The notes beneath the pieces were generated by a model, which was given only the letters and a program-made list of their open reading frames with translations, was not told the origin of the DNA and made no database searches. The position numbers were made by a program, and so were the translations under genes. Shown piece after piece: positions 32,851-57,764 of a stretch of DNA of 64,000 nucleotides. The DNA is from Escherichia phage Sa157lw. Every line of letters starts with the position of its first letter. Within the stretch, counting starts at the first letter, position 1. Where the stretch lies: sequence record OK322699.1; one strand, 5' to 3'.

Positions 32851-32953
32851 ATTTAAAATTTATTCAATAAACGGGGTTTACTTCTTCAATAAACCCCGTA
32901 TACTTCATTCCATAAGCAGCACAACACTGACTCTGAAATGAAGGAACTACACC

Positions 32954-33816: not shown

Positions 33817-34239
33817 ATGAAGAAGTATATCGTTCTTATAACGGGTTCCCGTTCTATAACTGAGCGGGACAAAATATTTGCCAAATTAGATGAACTCTTA
33901 ATCCCTCACGAGATAGAGACGTTTATTGAAGGTGAAGCAGTGGGTGTGGATCTGATATCCCGTGATTGGTGTGAAATCAATTATGTGCATATCACACCAA
34001 TGCCGATTCCTCAAAATTACCATACGTTATATGGGAAAGGTGCGGGCAATCAACGTAACAAAGATATGCTGGACAAGGCTCTAACATTGGCGAAGCAAAA
34101 AGATCTTGAGGTCTTTGGAATTGCATTATGGGATGGTTCGTCTACTGGGACGCAAGACATGATCAAGCGCATGAAGAAAGCGGGAATAAATGTCAATATC
34201 ACTCTCATGGGCAAACCCAAAACCAAACGATTGTTATAA
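33817..34239 (+). CDS. SLOG/DUF2493-like Rossmann-fold protein
   Basis: VLITGSRS ... EGEAVGVD ... QRNKDML ... WDGSSTGTQDMI pattern resembles the DprA/LOG-like DUF2493 family (from memory). Confidence 0.45.
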   Translation: MKKYIVLITGSRSITERDKIFAKLDELLIPHEIETFIEGEAVGVDLISRDWCEINYVHITPMPIPQNYHTLYGKGAGNQRNKDMLDKALTLAKQKDLEVFGIALWDGSSTGTQDMIKRMKKAGINVNITLMGKPKTKRLL

Positions 34240-36420: not shown

Positions 36421-36876
36421 ATGAGTGAAACAAAATTTGAAACAATGAAGACCGAAGATATAATCGCGGAATTAGATCCTCTTATTTCGGTGAATCCTGA
36501 AGACATGAATTTAGACCAAATATCATTGAAAATTGGTCGTTCATGGATGGCTGTCCAGCGCCATTACATTCGTGAAGGGCGTTATCTAGAATTTTTGACA
36601 GGAAAATTCCGTCAAATCGATCTTTATTTACGTCGGTATTATGCAGGGGAATTACCACCCAATATTTATGTCGAACGTCCCCTGAAAGTTCGCCCCCTGA
36701 AATCTGATATAGACGTTTGGGTAAAGGCTGATGACGATTACATTGAGTTATCGAGCATGTTGCAAGAACAAAAAGCCAAAGTAAAATTAATCGAAAGTAG
36801 TTTAGAACGTTTGAATAAACTCGGCTATGAAGTGAAAAATGCGATTGATTGGCGAAAATACTTGGACGGCATGTGA
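36421..36876 (+). CDS. uvsY: UvsY-like recombination mediator
   Basis: Loose similarity to T4 UvsY (YYAG vs YYSG region; C-terminal LNKLGYEVKNAIDWRKY vs IKSRGFAIKHIQDMRAF); sits just upstream of uvsW. Confidence 0.5.
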   Translation: MSETKFETMKTEDIIAELDPLISVNPEDMNLDQISLKIGRSWMAVQRHYIREGRYLEFLTGKFRQIDLYLRRYYAGELPPNIYVERPLKVRPLKSDIDVWVKADDDYIELSSMLQEQKAKVKLIESSLERLNKLGYEVKNAIDWRKYLDGM

Positions 36877-37622
36877 TGGTTTCCCTGCAGGCTTTGCGTA
36901 AACTCAATGATTTTGAGAACCGCCATTACACATTTCAGCAGTATGCCTTGCCCTTTAAGGAACTGACTTGTGTAACAACGGAAAACGGACGCCATTATGT
37001 GTCTCCAACAGGCGTCAAACTCACATCTGTAACAACGATGTTGGGGCGTACCGGAGATCATACATGGTTAGAAGCCTGGCGGGACAAGTTAGGACACGAA
37101 GCCGCCGATATCGAAACAGAGCGTTGCGCAGACCGTGGGGAAAAACTTCATTTGGCCTGTGAATTATATCTCAAAAACAGGCCGATGAAGGAAGTGTTAG
37201 AAGCCGCAGGGGAATACGTGTTTATGTTTAAACAGGTCTTCCCCTACCTGAACAAAATGAGCAAGATATACGCGCAGGAGATTCCGTTATATAGCGAAGT
37301 CCTTGGTCTTGCTGGTCGTGTTGATCTCATCAGCGTTTACGAGGGAATCCCTAGCATTATCGATTTCAAAACATCCAACACCCTGAAAACTCGGAGCATG
37401 ATAGAAGATTACAGCATTCAACTATGCCTGTACTCAGTCATGTTTCAACAGATGTTTAATGTTAAGATCGAACGTTTGGTCAATATTATATCTAACGAAA
37501 ATTCTCTTGTCCCGACTATAATCGAATTTAATCGAAAAGACGTTATTTCTAAAATGTTTGATCGTGTTCGCCTGTATCATAAAATGGATAAAGAACAGAA
37601 CGGGATCTGGGCGGATCGCTAA
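36876..37622 (+). CDS. PD-(D/E)xK family nuclease-like protein
   Basis: ATG overlapping previous stop (TGATG); motif GRVDLI ... IIDFKTS fits D...(D/E)xK. Confidence 0.4.
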   Translation: MVSLQALRKLNDFENRHYTFQQYALPFKELTCVTTENGRHYVSPTGVKLTSVTTMLGRTGDHTWLEAWRDKLGHEAADIETERCADRGEKLHLACELYLKNRPMKEVLEAAGEYVFMFKQVFPYLNKMSKIYAQEIPLYSEVLGLAGRVDLISVYEGIPSIIDFKTSNTLKTRSMIEDYSIQLCLYSVMFQQMFNVKIERLVNIISNENSLVPTIIEFNRKDVISKMFDRVRLYHKMDKEQNGIWADR

Positions 37623-37650: not shown

Positions 37651-39156
37651 ATGTCAGAAATTCAAATAATCAAAGTTAACGAAGTGCGCATGCGAATCTT
37701 GGCGGAAGACTATATCCGCGAAGAACTCAATGATTACTTCAAATTTGAAGATCCTAATTTCCAACCGAATCCCTTCAGTAAATGGGATGGCGTGGTACGC
37801 TTGTTCACAAAGAGTTCTGGCCTTATAGACATCGGTCTGTTGTTTGAGGTGTTTAAGTTCTGTAAGATGAATGGTTACACCATCAAATTAGATCCCGCCT
37901 TAAAATATATCCAAGATATACCAGACGAAGAGATACATACATTTATCAATTCCCTGAACGCTGTTTACCGTGATGAAAACAAGCAATACCAAATCGCAAC
38001 AGTGCGCGACTATCAATTCGACTCAGTGGCCACAGCAATACGCCAATCCAGATGCGTGCTAGAAGCGGCTACGAGCGCGGGTAAATCGTTTATTTTGTAC
38101 ATCATGGCGCGTTACTACAGGCAACGCAGAGAGGCACTGGAAAGCAATCTCAAGACGTTGATCGTTGTACCTTCCATTCACTTGGTGACTCAGTTGTATG
38201 ACAACTTTGAGGAATACAGCCATGGCACAAATTGGAATACCATGATGAATGTCCAGATGATATGTGAAGGTGCAACAAAGGATATATTCAAGCCCATAGT
38301 CATTTCCACTTGGCAGGGTATTCAGAATCAGCCCAAAGAATGGTTCCATCAATTTGGGGATATTGTTGTCGACGAAGTACACACATCTAAATCTGAAAAG
38401 CTATCTTATATCCTGAACAACTGCATTAATGCTGACCAAAGATTGGGAGTAACCGGAACCCTCGCGAATACAAAGGTTGCAGGGTTGCAGGTCGTTGCCC
38501 ATTTTGGAGCATACCATAAAATTATTACAGCACGTGATTTAATAAATCTTGGTTATGCCGCAGATATCCATGTCAACATGATTGAAGTCATACATCCCAT
38601 GGCGGATTGTATAGAAATGCATGGTGCTGAGTACCAAAAGGAAATAGAATTCCTCATAGCGAATGAACGTCGAAACGAGTTAATAGCCAGAATGGCATTG
38701 TCTTTGAAAGGTAACGTGGCCGTTATGTTCGAACGCATTGACGCCCATATGATGATTGTTTATGAAATGCTTTCAGCCGTTAAGAAAAACGTATTTGTCA
38801 TTAACGGCGAAGTTAAGACAGAAGTTCGTAAACAAATTCAGGCAGCGATGGAAGAGGGCGAAGATATAACACTGCTGGCATCTTATGGGACCATGCAACA
38901 GGGAGTGTCGATCAAAAAACTTCATCATTTGATATTGGCACACCCGAGTAAATCCTATATTCGTGTCATACAGACTTTAGGGCGTCTCATGCGCCAGCAC
39001 TCTTCAAAGGATGTTGCCAAGATCTGGGATTTAGTAGACAACTTGCGTTACAAAGGATTTTCGTACAACCATGCCCTCAGACATTCGCATGAGAGATATA
39101 AATTTTATCTTATGGAGCGACACCCTGTACAAATGAAGAAAGTGTCGCTCCAGTAA
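37651..39156 (+). CDS. uvsW: UvsW helicase
   Basis: ATG 37651 with GGGGGA SD; ATSAGKS Walker A, VDEVH box, N-terminal region parallels T4 UvsW. Confidence 0.8.
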   Translation: MSEIQIIKVNEVRMRILAEDYIREELNDYFKFEDPNFQPNPFSKWDGVVRLFTKSSGLIDIGLLFEVFKFCKMNGYTIKLDPALKYIQDIPDEEIHTFINSLNAVYRDENKQYQIATVRDYQFDSVATAIRQSRCVLEAATSAGKSFILYIMARYYRQRREALESNLKTLIVVPSIHLVTQLYDNFEEYSHGTNWNTMMNVQMICEGATKDIFKPIVISTWQGIQNQPKEWFHQFGDIVVDEVHTSKSEKLSYILNNCINADQRLGVTGTLANTKVAGLQVVAHFGAYHKIITARDLINLGYAADIHVNMIEVIHPMADCIEMHGAEYQKEIEFLIANERRNELIARMALSLKGNVAVMFERIDAHMMIVYEMLSAVKKNVFVINGEVKTEVRKQIQAAMEEGEDITLLASYGTMQQGVSIKKLHHLILAHPSKSYIRVIQTLGRLMRQHSSKDVAKIWDLVDNLRYKGFSYNHALRHSHERYKFYLMERHPVQMKKVSLQ

Positions 39157-39157
39157 T

Positions 39158-39535
39158 TCATTTATCTTGATTCACATAGGCGGGGGTTGCCTCGCCGTCT
39201 TTGTTAGAACCGAACAAACAACCCATCGTGTTGATGCATTGTTGTAGAACTTCCGGCTCAAGAATCTGACTCATCAGTTCTTCATTAGATTCCATCAGCG
39301 GGATGACTTTCACTTCCCGCGCCTGTCCTTGTTGGATAATGCCGATATACAGACCTTTGGTGTCTGGCAGTAACGGGATCACCATCATTGGTGTCACAAC
39401 AAACTTAGAAGTGCGATAGAGGCTGTGTAAGTAAACACCTTTCAATGTCGGTTGTTCTTCTACCAACATTGAAGACATTGAAAGGTTGGATTCTTGAACT
39501 TCCCCCACTGCATATAAACCCACGAATTGTTTCAT
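39158..39535 (-). CDS. hypothetical protein (125 aa), opposite strand
   Basis: Only long ORF in this gap; convergent with uvsW; plausible SD. Confidence 0.45.
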   Translation of the reverse strand: MKQFVGLYAVGEVQESNLSMSSMLVEEQPTLKGVYLHSLYRTSKFVVTPMMVIPLLPDTKGLYIGIIQQGQAREVKVIPLMESNEELMSQILEPEVLQQCINTMGCLFGSNKDGEATPAYVNQDK

Positions 39536-39871
39536 ATATCACTCTCTTGTTAGTAAACATAACTACATAATAATCTCATGCTGTGTTTAGACCAAATAAA
39601 TTATTTTGCTAGTTGAATAAAAATCGCTTTCTTGTTGAACAATCCGTGCGTAATATACGAGTTGTGAGCTTTGCGAGCAACGAGTATTATCACGAGCGAA
39701 GCGAGTAGACTGATAAAGAAAGGTTTTATTAAAACAGAATATTATAAATGCCGTCAGGCATTTATTTATCGCGCGTAGGGCATTTTAACACTTGTTCTAT
39801 AACTGCAAACACGCGATACTAATTTGCGTCAAACATGACTTGAACCCCACTATATTTTGAGGATATAAACA

Positions 39872-40540
39872 ATGCAAGAGATCACTCTCTCTGAACGCAC
39901 TTTACAACTGCTGGCCAACTTTGAAACCATTTGCCCTTCTATCGTTCTGGCACCTGGTAAAAAGCTGCGCACTGTTAACGACTCCAGCACCGTCATCGCT
40001 ATCGCTGACATCGACGAAGACTTCCCGTTTGAATTCCCTATTTTGGACCTGACCAAACTTCTGGCCATTCAGCGTCTGCCTAGTTTCAAAGGCGGTAAAA
40101 TCGAAATGTCGGAAGATCATATTTTACTGAAAGGTGAAAACTCGCAGCTGCAATTCTGGCGCTCAGCAAAAGAATTGACTGTCGTTCCTGCCGACAGCAT
40201 TGATCTCCCGTCCGTTGAATTCGAAGCGACGGTCACTCCTGAAAAAATGAAAGAGCTGACCCGCGCCTGTTCTACTCTGGGACACAAAACTGTTCGTCTG
40301 GTTGCCAGCGGCGGTAAAACCCGTCTGGTCGGTACGACTACGACTATCGATAATTCCAACGATTACACCGTTGAATTGGGTGAAACTGCTCTGGCTGATT
40401 TCGCTATGCCTGTCGACGTTGTTAACCTGAAAATGATCGAGGGCAACTATGTGATCCGCGCCTGTGCTGAAATGCAGCTTGTTAACTTCCAGTCGGCAGA
40501 TGGTACCATCAACTACTACGTTGGCATGCAGCTGGATTAA
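39872..40540 (+). CDS. gp45: sliding clamp gp45
   Basis: LLANFETICPSIVL vs T4 LLKNFATINSGIML; size 222 aa vs T4 228 aa; followed by gp44 and gp62. Confidence 0.8.
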   Translation: MQEITLSERTLQLLANFETICPSIVLAPGKKLRTVNDSSTVIAIADIDEDFPFEFPILDLTKLLAIQRLPSFKGGKIEMSEDHILLKGENSQLQFWRSAKELTVVPADSIDLPSVEFEATVTPEKMKELTRACSTLGHKTVRLVASGGKTRLVGTTTTIDNSNDYTVELGETALADFAMPVDVVNLKMIEGNYVIRACAEMQLVNFQSADGTINYYVGMQLD

Positions 40541-42037: not shown

Positions 42038-42066
42038 TTCAAATTATTGTTAAAGGGGTACGAGTC

Positions 42067-42531
42067 ATGGCGCGTAATACGCTGGACATCTTGAAACTTT
42101 CAGCTGTTAACGATGAGGCCAGCATCGTTGATTGTATGGTTGAAGTTCAATTGAACCAAGATAAACCAGGAATTTTTCTGGGTATCAAGGAAACGCTGAG
42201 CCGCATCGGGGTGAACACTCGTCAAGAGCCGAATACCCTGTACCAAACATGTCATATTCTGCATAAATTTGGCAGATATCACATCGTGCACTTCAAGCAT
42301 CTTTTCATGCTGGATGGGCATTACAACGGCTTTACGCGTGAAGATGTCCTGCGTATGAATCGGATTATTCGGCTTTTGGAGCAGTGGAATATGGTTAAAA
42401 TACTGCATCCGGAACAGATTACCGAAGTTGCTGATATGTCTCGAATCAAAGTTGTAAAACATGACCAAGTTTCTGATTGGAAACTGGTTCCAAAATATAC
42501 CATCCGCCCGACTCGGGCGAAAAGCGAATAA
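42067..42531 (+). CDS. regA: translational repressor RegA
   Basis: LYQTCHILHKFGRYHIVHFKHLFML and DWKLVPKYTIR match T4 RegA. Alignment suggests the true start may be the internal ATG at 42136 (MVEVQLNQDKPGIFLGIKETL vs T4 MIEITLKKPEDFLKVKETL). Confidence 0.8.
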   Translation: MARNTLDILKLSAVNDEASIVDCMVEVQLNQDKPGIFLGIKETLSRIGVNTRQEPNTLYQTCHILHKFGRYHIVHFKHLFMLDGHYNGFTREDVLRMNRIIRLLEQWNMVKILHPEQITEVADMSRIKVVKHDQVSDWKLVPKYTIRPTRAKSE

Positions 42532-44704: not shown

Positions 44705-44816
44705 AGAATCGCTTTACTTCATTCTTCAATAACCCCCTTTCAACGTATATTGACCTCACTTTAACGACGCGCCCATTTAGGGCGCTCAATTTGAACTGAA
44801 ACAGGAAGACTATACC

Positions 44817-47247: not shown

Positions 47248-47267
47248 TCTGACGGCTCCGGCCTGAG

Positions 47268-47296
47268 AAACCCCGCCGTGTGCGGGGTTTCTTTTG
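47268..47296 (+). terminator. rho-independent terminator (AAACCCCGC-loop-GCGGGGTTT plus T-run)
   Basis: Perfect stem after stop at 47247. Confidence 0.65.
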
Positions 47297-47306
47297 GACA
47301 AAAATC

Positions 47307-47717
47307 ATGAAATCTATTACGTGTGATTACTGCGGTCAACCTGCCCAATACGTCGGGTGTGATGTTGTATACCCCCACCGCCCCGACCTCCGCAATCTGA
47401 AGTTCTGGGTATGCTCGCCATGCGACGCTCGTGTGGGTTGCCATACCCATGGGGATGGTAGACAACCTCTGGGAAGGATGGCGAATGCCGCTCTCCGTGC
47501 TGCTAAGCAGGAAGCTCATAGATCGTTTGACCCTATCTGGAAAGGTGGGCAGAGGAGCAGGAGTGATGCTTACAGCTGGCTGGCTCATAATCTGGGGATC
47601 AAGAAGCGCGATTGCCATATCGGCTTGTTCGATATCGATATGTGCCGTAAAGTAGTCGCTGTGTGTAATCAACTAAAGGCACAAGATAATGTCAAAGGAA
47701 ATACAAGAAGCATTTGA
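47307..47717 (+). CDS. zinc-ribbon protein (CxxC...CxxC)
   Basis: ATG 47307; CDYCGQ ... CSPCDARVGCH cysteine pairs. Confidence 0.45.
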   Translation: MKSITCDYCGQPAQYVGCDVVYPHRPDLRNLKFWVCSPCDARVGCHTHGDGRQPLGRMANAALRAAKQEAHRSFDPIWKGGQRSRSDAYSWLAHNLGIKKRDCHIGLFDIDMCRKVVAVCNQLKAQDNVKGNTRSI

Positions 47718-51498: not shown

Positions 51499-51506
51499 AC
51501 CAAAAG

Positions 51507-51538
51507 AATCCCCAATATTTATTGGGGATTTTTACTTT
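51507..51538 (+). terminator. rho-independent terminator (AATCCCCAAT-ATTT-ATTGGGGATT plus T-run)
   Basis: Perfect 10-bp stem after the ACP-like gene stop. Confidence 0.6.
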
Positions 51539-51618
51539 TAGGGGTTTACTTCTTCTAAAGAATATCCTATTATTCAATAACTGGCTAACGTGGGGTTGGC
51601 TAGAAAAGGAGATACAAA

Positions 51619-55054: not shown

Positions 55055-55111
55055 TTCAATAACATTAGGGCGGTTATTATTAAACCGCCTTTTATTTGAG
55101 AGATCTATATT

Positions 55112-57681: not shown

Positions 57682-57764
57682 ACGCTTTATTCAATAATAT
57701 TTGTTAGGTAAGCTGTAGTCCTCTTGTAGTGAAACATTGTAAACAACTAACTGGAGTAATCCGA

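Follow-up and report, generated by a model that had tools for sequence, protein, structure and literature searches.

The sliding clamp gene (gp45) of Escherichia phage Sa157lw is separated from its leftward-transcribed neighbor by an AT-rich divergent gap of 336 bp, here called intergenic region 1 (IGR1), which holds a conserved, duplicated and apparently undescribed hairpin module together with candidate promoters. The DNA analyzed, referred to throughout as the window, is a stretch of 64,000 nucleotides (nt) of sequence record OK322699.1; it represents a Kuttervirus (family Ackermannviridae), and its segment 39100-40600 is 99.5% identical to Escherichia phage ECML-4 and matches 260 phage records. 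The genes at the locus are, in order, the uvsW helicase gene (+ strand), a gene for a 125-residue protein (- strand), the gap, the clamp gene gp45 (+ strand), gp44, gp62 and regA. An earlier note, made from the letters of the window, had placed the gap at the right coordinates, with a length of 335 rather than 336 bp, and had called it AT-rich, divergent and the longest non-coding stretch present. That description is borne out by the positions of the open reading frame (ORF) starts, the phrog_223 identity of gp45 and the base composition (GC 0.35, versus ~0.45 for the window), with both 64-kb minima of GC lying inside IGR1 (0.24 in 100-nt and 0.315 in 200-nt windows), and no longer truly non-coding stretch is present in our own ORF map.

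Conservation of the gap and the fold of its repeats

A 401-nt query spanning the gap matched 271 records, with 80% or more of the query length covered in 270. The gap can be aligned in Limestonevirus and Agtrevirus (~80% identity) and in Taipeivirus (~73-75%), the overall span being 73-81%. When 13 phages from three genera are aligned, 56% of the columns in the gap are invariant, compared with 20%, 8% and 4% of the third codon positions of gp45, the left-hand gene and uvsW, respectively, and with 26% of all columns in the left-hand gene; blocks inside the gap, the hairpin block among them, reach 75-90%, which is the level of the first and second codon positions of gp45. A 65-nt core, found a single time in each match region, is shared at 99% identity or more by 173 phage records. 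On this comparative evidence the gap is not a neutral spacer, and is best read as a compound control region under strong purifying selection. Two small ORFs within it (39613-39708 and 39671-39778) were discarded, as every frame is broken by indels of 1, 3, 4 or 5 nt between genera.

Between positions 39658 and 39705 the sequence CGAG occurs five times and TGAG once within 48 nt. The mean density of CGAG in the window is 0.10 per 60 nt, IGR1 holds the sole 60-nt stretch on either strand with at least four, and the Poisson expectation of finding at least five anywhere in the window is ~1.6e-4. These elements had been noted before as a GCGAG/ACGAG series of short direct repeats; the clustering is real, but they are not plain direct repeats, and our comparisons support a different arrangement in which they are the mutually pairing arms of two + strand hairpins, A and B (Table 1). 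Hairpin A has two CGAG blocks, predicted to form tandem sheared G:A pairs, with a 3-bp helix between them and a short apical hairpin above, and hairpin B has a single block that closes the sequence GCGAAGC (39697-39703). Two CGAG tetranucleotides facing each other in antiparallel orientation form C:G, sheared G:A, A:G and G:C pairs, an arrangement defined by nuclear magnetic resonance that stabilizes DNA hairpins (PMC10085684), and GCGAAGC, called an "extraordinarily stable mini-hairpin" by Hirao and colleagues, belongs to a described GCGNAGC class (PMC13037366). Three such pairs of antiparallel Y-GA-R tetranucleotides, each between Watson-Crick pairs, lie in 39658-39705, and the outer bases of the blocks covary (C-G, T-A, T:G, G-C).

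The minimum-free-energy fold computed with ViennaRNA has exactly the shape of hairpin A, which is also recovered by RNAalifold; hairpin B is not formed in the RNAalifold consensus RNA fold. A covariance model was built from seven sequences with the proposed structure and searched against 286 kb of loci. In its alignment 99.1% of the cells are paired (87.7% in shuffles), 27 cells are changed on both sides (9.0 in shuffles) and the covariation score is 0.333 (0.141 in shuffles), with none of 500 shuffles reaching the observed value for either of the latter two measures. Six pairs show changes on both sides, and sliding the 3' partners by 1-3 columns lowers the pairing to 19-52%.

Because the covariance-model alignment is fitted to the structure, 13 representatives were also parsed independently of it. 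In all 13, hairpin A retains four N-GA-N blocks, the helix that separates them reads TTG/CAA, TTGT/ATAA, TAGTT/AACTG or TTGTTG/CTACAA, and the two arms shift in length in step (3/3, 4/4, 5/5 and 6/6 nt); the second copy of the module in Miltonvirus phiMAM1 (see below), for example, has TAGTT/AACTG where the window has TTG/CAA. The apical pair of hairpin A is C-G, T-A or A-T, its block-closing pair T:G, T-A or G-C, and its outer stem ATA/TAT, ATT/AAT, CTT/AAG or TGA/TCA. Hairpin B is closed by a C-G pair in Kuttervirus, Taipeivirus and Miltonvirus and by a T-A pair in Aglimvirinae, and within its GNA loop N alone varies (A or T). Apart from TTT, AAA and TTTA, all loops are of the G(N)NA kind (GAA, GTA, GGA, GTTA and GTCA), and a set of exact mini-hairpins recurs across lineages (GCGAAGC, GCGTAGC, GCGGAGC, GCGTTAGC, GCGTCAGC and CCGAAGG), with Miltonvirus copy 1 having exactly GCGGAGC at the apex of hairpin A. 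G:T wobbles are confined to the + strand fold. The compensatory substitutions and matched changes in arm length, seen in six genera, support the hairpin fold.

These patterns bear on one rival explanation of the region, namely that it is an ordinary divergent promoter region in which the CGAG repeats are protein-binding sites in duplex DNA (operators or iterons) and the hairpins are incidental. The repeats do lie between candidate promoters, the LIMEstone1 record annotates promoters at the gap, and the T4 origin oriE uses iterons. We nonetheless consider this explanation very unlikely, since the repeats of IGR1 lack regular direct-repeat spacing (7, 9, 7, 12 and 9 nt) and the spacing changes between genera yet stays symmetric on both arms, the helices between the repeats are exchanged for other complementary pairs, and the block-closing bases covary (C-G, T-A, G-C). 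A protein that reads direct repeats in the duplex would not require such symmetric and complementary changes in the arms.

A second copy and the distribution of the module

A pattern scan of viral contigs gave 120 hits, which were then filtered for context; most are chance matches in unrelated contigs, and hairpin B stands beside hairpin A only at Ackermannviridae loci. In the complete ECML-4 genome the pattern and the covariance model each match exactly two places, both on the + strand. Copy 1, at 123.4 kb, is IGR1, and copy 2, at 80057-80125, lies ~3.6 kb to the left of the window in a 351-bp divergent gap (79903-80253), here called IGR2, which is flanked by a minus-strand gene (phrog_3788) and the baseplate wedge gene gp6. 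IGR1 and IGR2 are the sole two long divergent gaps in this genome, one module heading the replication cluster (gp45-44-62) and the other the structural gene block, and IGR2 is where gene orientation makes its main change, from leftward to rightward, and where the cumulative GC skew reaches its minimum (79-80 kb of ECML-4). IGR2 also adjoins a tRNA cluster and ~2.4 kb of DNA without annotated genes (76.9-79.3 kb).

The two gaps align over most of their length and share the order A-tract block, hairpin A, hairpin B, AT-rich stretch, CGCGCGAG, promoter region (CTAAATAT in IGR2, CTAATTT in IGR1) and leader; comparison of their left-hand genes revealed no paralogy (E 0.096). In the IGR2 of Kuttervirus, hairpin B is extended to a GC-rich stem with the apex GCGTCAGC, and two extra hairpins lie between A and B. 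The two-copy layout is also present in Taipeivirus, Miltonvirus phiMAM1 and a metagenomic contig (L074), and copy 1 also occurs in Nezavisimistyvirus Ea2809 (its gp45 shares 57% identity with the Serratia phage KNP4 protein) and in a metagenomic contig. Within Taipeivirus and within Miltonvirus (phages Menlow, KN2-1 and phiMAM1), the two copies have almost the same hairpin B and 3' flank (for example CCGAGCGNAGCGAGTGATTAATATTA in phiMAM1), although the genera differ from each other; this near-identity inside genomes suggests concerted evolution or gene conversion between the copies. In distant Vibrio phages (gp45 36% identical, gp6 40%) the gap upstream of gp6 holds GGGG-TGAGCGAAGCGAA-CCCC and other GAA-loop hairpins, with the 13-mer of hairpin B in phage K483 having an added GGGG/CCCC stem, and the region upstream of gp45 holds GATTGC-GAA-GCAATC and GCGGAGC in very AT-rich DNA.

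Several individual genomes deserve mention. Vibrio phages K483 (locus L148, 371-1152) and D495 (locus L018, 1270-1494) have long AT-rich gaps upstream of gp6 and gp45 with several GAA- or GGA-loop hairpins, some of them on the minus strand; the tiny ORFs annotated there (34-46 aa) look doubtful, and K483 contains a ~90-nt direct repeat (about 800-880 and 975-1050). The gap of Salmonella phage Se-H (MN871496, a record flagged UNVERIFIED_ORG; 733-1071 of locus L011) is a mosaic with an Aglimvirinae-like left half and a Kuttervirus-like right half, the switch occurring at hairpin A. In Escherichia phage ZQ1 the AT-rich stretch after hairpin B contains a 19-nt tandem duplication (TTATTATCTTTAATAAAGG, about 940-980 of locus L006). 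Both gaps persist in the phage records selz and SenALZ1 (122-139 kb); the sizes of these records would fit the genome-reduced derivatives described for a 154.8-kb Kuttervirus (PMC9825161), and the retention of the gaps says little because that reduction work targeted genes.

Promoters and the possible roles of the hairpins

Three promoter-like arrangements are conserved in the gap (Table 1), all of them combining good -10 hexamers with weak -35 hexamers relative to the sigma-70 consensus TTGACA/TATAAT. The rightward candidate P(+) has a geometry (A tract, 4-5 nt, hexamer, 17 nt, TAnnnT) that recurs in five genera for IGR1 and in three for IGR2, and so in all eight paralogue/genus combinations, with divergent spacers; its A tract sits where a proximal UP element would lie, and it was left out of the promoter scanner list because of its weak -35. 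Transcription from P(+) is predicted to start at ~39663-39664, within the 5' arm of hairpin A, and the distance from its -10 to hairpin A is 0-1 nt in IGR1 of the five genera versus 14-18 nt in IGR2. The leftward candidate P1 keeps its hexamers and 17-nt spacing, with varying spacer sequence, in Kuttervirus, Aglimvirinae (TAATAT) and Taipeivirus; it is missed by the scanner because its -35 matches the consensus at 3/6 positions, and the alignment of IGR1 with IGR2 shows no counterpart of it in IGR2. P3, the candidate promoter for gp45, has invariant hexamers and a variable spacer in three genera, and Miltonvirus has a near-consensus TTGTCA-16-TATAAT at its place, the -10 being 2 nt upstream of the aligned window position. 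The candidate promoters of both flanking genes lie outside the core hairpin module. A sigma-70 scan of 39000-40200 gave 4 sites, versus 2.6 +/- 1.8 in shuffles.

The earlier note had raised the possibility of early and middle promoters by analogy with T4. The gap does carry conserved promoter-like arrangements in both directions, which are predictions only, but T4-type middle promoters dependent on MotA are not supported: ViI-like phages have neither MotA nor AsiA (Kutter et al., PMC3184105), and no convincing MotA box at the right spacing was found in the region, LIMEstone1 having TGCTTTC 19 nt from the -10. Kutter et al. identified neither the early promoters nor the late motif of the ViI-like phages, noting that the divergent points must hold unknown promoters and that antitermination might time the delayed-early genes (PMC3184105). 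The promoters of LIMEstone1 were predicted by similarity to T4 (PMC3296691), and we do not retain its MotA-type "putative middle promoter", which maps onto the complement of hairpins A and B in a family without MotA. Other candidates were likewise rejected. A minus-strand TTGCTC-17-TATATT (39680..39652), located inside hairpin A, looked good in three genera (TATAAT, TATAGT) but does not hold in Miltonvirus, where the spacer is 23 nt, or in Ea2809, and IGR2 lacks an equivalent; the scanner hits TTGTGA-17-TATTAT (+) and TTTGCA-16-TAAAAT (-) have a -10 or -35 that is not conserved in other genera; and none of the look-alikes of CRP, DnaA, sigma-32 and sigma-54 sites, inspected by eye, has the right spacing.

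The sequence CTAAATA(C/T) occurs ten times on the + strand of the window and once on the - strand. Eight of the ten + strand copies lie 16-44 nt before + strand ORF starts, against a chance expectation of 7.8%, with the copy at 37619 preceding the annotated uvsW start, and this is probably the late-promoter motif of the family; the T4 late motif TATAAATA has one occurrence in the window, at 34235. The sequence in IGR1 that aligns with the late-type CTAAATA of IGR2 is CTAATTT (CTAAATT in Taipeivirus), which has two mismatches from CTAAATA and lies 53 nt from the ATG, and we do not regard it as a late promoter. As a candidate T4 late promoter TATAAATA is absent from the gap, the TATAAATG at 39743 being part of the hairpin C stem and reading CATAAATG in Aglimvirinae. 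Two other sequences, TTCAATAA(A/C)C and GGGGTTTACTTCTTC, recur in gaps of the early and replication regions (32851-32953, 44705-44816, 51499-51618, 55055-55111 and 57682-57728), and may be parts of early promoters or of terminator-promoter units.

The core module lies directly downstream of P(+) and is flanked by AT-rich DNA of GC 0.19-0.20. Our preferred reading, which we hold tentatively, is that it is a promoter-coupled, hairpin-forming initiation module, that is, an R-loop origin similar to T4 oriF and oriG with hairpins of the ssi/G4 type. Transcription from P(+), together with negative supercoiling between the divergent promoters, would free the non-template + strand, which would snap into the unusually stable hairpins rather than re-anneal. 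The hairpins would then stabilize an R-loop, or an open region, over the first ~50 nt of the transcript; the R-loop RNA would prime rightward DNA synthesis, and the structured displaced strand would be a loading or priming site for the phage helicase-primase. There would be two such modules in this phage, in parallel with the several origins of T4. What has been computed here is the sequence conservation, the covarying fold, the presence of two copies, the geometry of the promoter and the AT-rich composition of the flanks, and we infer a fold that forms in DNA rather than in RNA and that would start replication.

The choice of DNA is guided in part by the position of the predicted start within the 5' arm of hairpin A. 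The covarying outer helices could not both be contained in RNA that begins there, and this, combined with the G(N)NA loops and the recurrence of DNA mini-hairpins, favors a structure of the non-template strand at the DNA level. Mini-hairpins of this kind have been reported at the complementary-strand origins of G4, St-1 and alpha3, at ssiA of RSF1010 and at the N4 early promoters, and are far more stable as DNA than as RNA (melting temperature 76.5 C versus 39 C; PMC13037366). By analogy with such phage and plasmid initiation-site hairpins an origin-type function of the module is plausible, if unproven.

The same hairpins could act as RNA, an explanation that we consider the main rival while thinking it rather unlikely. 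They might give structure to the 5' leader of the gp45 (and gp6) operons, or belong to a small RNA of ~105-150 nt that ends at hairpin C or at the CGCGCG hairpin, transcribed from P(+) or by read-through from the uvsW operon, with possible roles in control of RNA stability, attenuation, processive antitermination (as for the HK022 put RNAs) or regulation in trans; if so, this would be a new family-wide phage RNA. Each copy is immediately preceded by the conserved promoter-like arrangement, the fold is peculiar to the + strand and accommodates G:U, and the 126-nt + strand RNA fold, which includes hairpins A and C, has z = -2.2. The extra GC-rich hairpins between A and B in copy 2 vary yet stay paired, in the manner of RNA expansion segments, hairpin C and the IGR2 hairpin AACGC..GCGTT precede T-rich runs, hairpins B and C are separated by an A/U-rich stretch containing ARN-like triplets, and the antitermination suggested for delayed-early genes (PMC3184105) would suit such a role. 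However, in the IGR1 of all five genera only 0-1 nt separate hairpin A from the -10 of P(+), so that RNA from P(+) would lack the first CGAG block and part of the 5' arm, and yet these missing parts still covary and change length with their partners. The loops GUUA, GUCA and GNA fall outside the stable RNA classes, the heptamers and octamers of the DNA mini-hairpins recur exactly, RNA prediction does not yield hairpin B, and hairpin C is missing in three genera. A search with the Rfam 15 covariance models found nothing relevant in IGR1 (E up to 10) or IGR2 (E up to 1), and neither terminator-like hairpin passes the scanner on the + strand. HK022 putL and putR do resemble the module in being two paralogous two-hairpin elements just downstream of promoters, but the put RNAs lie wholly within their transcripts, contrary to IGR1, and share no sequence or Rfam similarity with it.

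The proposed initiation module can be compared with several known systems. It resembles T4 oriF (uvsY) and oriG (gene 34), where a promoter and an unwinding element are combined and an R-loop RNA is the primer, in having a candidate promoter followed at once by DNA that should open easily, in the presence of several similar copies per genome and in the T4-type replication proteins, with gp45, gp44/62 and UvsW encoded beside IGR1; the AT-rich flanks and the 64-kb GC minima may correspond to the DNA-unwinding element of the T4 origins. The T4 origins use MotA-dependent middle promoters, whereas this family lacks MotA and AsiA and has a sigma-70/UP-like arrangement instead, and we know of no description of T4 origins as carrying CGAG-block or mini-hairpin modules. 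The complementary-strand origins of G4, St-1 and alpha3 and the RSF1010 ssiA are like the module in having clusters of hairpins on one strand with GCGAAAGC, GCGTTAGC or CCGAAGG. The strand-specific hairpins with GCGNAGC, GCGNNAGC or CCGAAGG that mark ssi signals are represented here by GCGAAGC at 39697-39703 and its variants in relatives, AV101 having GCGTTAGC and Aglimvirinae having CCGAAGG in hairpin C. These signals, however, act on DNA that is already single-stranded, are read by DnaG or RepB' primase and have no CGAG blocks, while the module sits in a duplex phage genome of 157 kb with a T4-type primase-helicase. The ColE1 origin (RNA II and the primosome assembly site) similarly combines promoter-driven R-loop priming with a hairpin loading site on the displaced strand, but it uses host Pol I, RNase H and PriA, and there is no sequence or Rfam similarity. 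The predicted self-pairing of the blocks (C:G, G:A, A:G, G:C) and their GNNA-type loops are the same as in a CGAG block from the promoter region of human AUTS2 (PMC10085684), which differs in being a tandem CGAG repeat with register shifting, whereas the phage has single blocks at fixed positions between Watson-Crick helices.

A number of observations weigh against the initiation module. The earlier note had proposed a replication origin in this gap, with GC skew as one check; the conserved hairpin module and its paralogue at a GC-skew minimum and strand switch accord with that proposal, but within the window the skew shows no inflection at the gap, and the check gives no support for an origin at IGR1. 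The skew minimum at copy 2 may reflect transcription rather than replication, because gene orientation switches at the same place. In T4-like phages most initiation of replication depends on recombination, and an origin may be dispensable. The covariation counts come from related sequences in an alignment fitted to the proposed structure, and the ViennaRNA DNA parameters, which may lack terms for tandem G:A pairs and GNA loops, do not predict the copy 1 fold, a result set aside as uninformative. The -35 of P(+) is poor, and its -10 stands in a different register with hairpin A in the two copies (0-1 nt in IGR1 versus 14-18 nt in IGR2). Purine richness of the would-be primer RNA is moderate in IGR1 (0.65) and absent in IGR2 (0.54), and the argument from a purine-rich primer was dropped as weak. 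The G:U-type wobbles, the inserts of copy 2 that resemble expansion segments and the T-rich runs after the hairpins suit RNA equally well. In the searchable literature we found no transcript map, origin map or structure probing for the phage family, nor any promoter or origin map of Ackermannviridae later than PMC3184105.

The hairpins might also belong to a structure-dependent transcription element, either through supercoil-extruded hairpins that pre-open or gate the divergent promoters (as in N4, Frpo and M13 ori(-)) or through a junction of single- and double-stranded DNA where gp45 is loaded, which would then be a late-promoter enhancer. Both copies lie between divergent promoters, where negative supercoiling accumulates according to the twin-domain model, and in IGR1 the base of hairpin A is at about -8 from the predicted start. 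Copy 1 is upstream of gp45, a late-transcription co-activator, and copy 2 is ~100 nt upstream of the late-type CTAAATA promoter that heads the structural block. N4 hairpin promoters are extruded from supercoiled DNA; they have a short stem with a GGA or GAA triloop (GCGGAGC), as in Miltonvirus copy 1 at the apex of hairpin A, but the N4 stem is of 5-7 bp whereas the module has 2-bp mini-hairpins on CGAG blocks, a larger architecture and only two copies. Mini-hairpins with GCGGAGC or GAA loops are the recognition element of N4 early promoters (PMC13037366), and the ViI-like early promoters were left unidentified by Kutter et al. (PMC3184105). There are only two copies per genome, against the dozens of early and late promoters expected, and the register of hairpin to promoter differs between them. 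Clamp loading in T4 needs a nick or primer end, which a hairpin lacks, and to our knowledge no N4-type virion RNA polymerase is encoded by the Ackermannviridae; the ECML-4 annotation lists none, and no genome search aimed at this polymerase was made. We regard a transcription element of this type as improbable.

A bolder extension of the initiation module, which we think unlikely, is that the Ackermannviridae and perhaps their Vibrio relatives possess a novel class of self-folding duplex-DNA element made of CGAG blocks and mini-hairpins, extruded from the non-template strand beside a promoter and serving as a replication start or a clamp/helicase loading platform at two fixed sites. Such an element would physically tie early transcription to origin firing and, by way of gp45, to late transcription. 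Whatever its role, the module is short (about 50-120 nt), is more conserved than the neighboring genes, is present exactly twice per genome, and joins the CGAG block to the GCGNAGC mini-hairpin, two DNA motifs known up to now chiefly from biophysical work. Should it prove to be an origin or a structure-gated promoter, it would be a natural case of sheared G:A pairing in DNA with a definite biological function, would carry the T4 origin model over to phages that lack MotA, and would offer an engineering handle (origin-dependent plasmid amplification, minimal genomes). Biocontrol and therapy are applications for which phages of Kuttervirus and other Ackermannviridae are in wide use or have been proposed.

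Other features of the gap and its surroundings

Table 1. Features of IGR1 and its surroundings, in window coordinates
Feature	Position	Strand	Sequence or description	Basis or remark
Left-bounding gene	39158..39535	-	125 aa, phrog_4255, function unknown	ORF and ECML-4 annotation; ATG at 39535
IGR1	39536..39871		336-bp AT-rich divergent intergenic region	ORF map, GC, conservation
P1	39567..39595	-	Candidate sigma-70-type promoter for the minus-strand gene: TTGGTC 39595..39590, 17 nt, TATTAT 39572..39567	Candidate
Invariant block	39584..39606		TGTTTAGACCAA (39584-39595), then A/T-rich run; overlaps P1 -35	Invariant in 13 sequences, three genera
P(+)	39619..39656	+	A5 tract 39619-39623, 4 nt, TTTCTT 39628-39633, 17 nt, TAATAT 39651-39656	Candidate, comparative
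Conserved block	39619-39640		AAAAA..GCTTTCTTGTTGAAC	Comparative alignment
Conserved CGAG region	39651-39708			Comparative alignment
Hairpin A	39655..39687	+	ATA/CGAG/TTG/TGAG/C-TTT-G/CGAG/CAA/CGAG/TAT	Minimum-free-energy fold, RNAalifold, covariation
Hairpin B	39692..39706	+	A/CGAG/C-GAA-G/CGAG/T; one CGAG block closing mini-hairpin GCGAAGC	Per-lineage comparison
AT-rich stretch after hairpins	39707..39750		GC 0.20, possible DNA-unwinding element	Composition; sequence and length vary among genera
Hairpin C	39744..39765		ATAAATGCC-GTCA-GGCATTTAT	9 bp, -10.8 kcal/mol, z = -4.2, 0/200 shuffles as stable
Conserved block	39770..39781		CGCGCGTAGGGC, CGCGCG(A/T)AG type	In IGR1 of all genera; IGR2 counterpart CGCGCGAGAGC
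Conserved block	39789-39801		CACTTGTTCTATA	Comparative alignment
P3	39793..39825	+	Candidate promoter for gp45: TTGTTC 39793-39798, 16 nt, GATACT 39815-39820	Candidate; overlaps CTAATTT 39819-39825
Conserved block	39813-39866		From GCGATACTA to gp45 Shine-Dalgarno	Comparative alignment
gp45 5' leader and translation initiation region	39826..39871	+	Shine-Dalgarno GAGGA 39859-39863	80-85% invariant columns
gp45 sliding clamp gene	39872..40540	+	phrog_223, E 4.8e-65	Annotated in ECML-4 and relatives
CTAAATA(C/T) copies	2038, 5266, 7476, 12184, 18699, 22949, 27730, 28948, 37619, 50637	+	Probable late-promoter motif	Window scan

The third hairpin of the gap, hairpin C, corresponds to the one reported near 39745 in the earlier note and is confirmed, none of the shuffled sequences being equally stable (Table 1). 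It is kept in Kuttervirus (loop GTCA) and in Aglimvirinae, where the loop is GAA and CCGAAGG forms an ssiA-type mini-hairpin, and is replaced or absent in Taipeivirus, Miltonvirus and Nezavisimistyvirus (Ea2809). Its loop is of the G..A type and its likeness to a terminator is weak in either direction: the stem has 3 G-C pairs, the + strand tail is TTATCGCG, and the terminator scanner accepts the minus strand only. Among the conserved blocks, Miltonvirus keeps part of TGTTTAGACCAA as GTTTAGAGC, and the block that follows hairpin C has GCGTAGC in its Aglimvirinae version. The AT-rich stretch between hairpins B and C is of low conservation and contains indels.

By analogy with T4 biology, the conserved gp45 leader could be an operator or target of RegA. 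The regA gene lies at 42067-42531 (PF01818), and its own leader (42038-42066) contains AAATTATTGTTAAAG, which resembles the A/U-rich target consensus of T4 RegA; by the same analogy this would hint at RegA autoregulation.

The product of the left-hand gene matches phrog_4255 (E 1.6e-57) and has no match in a Pfam search. Just past the uvsW stop codon, within the 3' end of this minus-strand gene, there is a GC-rich terminator-like hairpin (39179-39196, +), which carries a terminator annotation in phages Maynard and AKM_ssTn, and in LIMEstone1 (1-364 of locus L004) the uvsW gene beside the left-hand gene is interrupted by an element annotated as "putative intron I-LimI".

Near the gap, window positions equal ECML-4 positions minus 83757, and indels shift this register elsewhere. 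The ECML-4 gene table, whose coordinates are valid only over ~34-48.7 kb owing to these indels, was dropped as a map of the whole window and replaced by our own ORF map. Two apparently longer gaps were discounted: a 395-nt gap in the ORF map is an artefact within the annotated gene 36876-37622, and the 441-nt unannotated gap of ECML-4 (47248-47688) contains an ORF (47280-47717). This ORF, on the + strand and unannotated in ECML-4, would encode 145 residues from a GTG start, with a cysteine-rich N-terminus and a GC content of 0.53.

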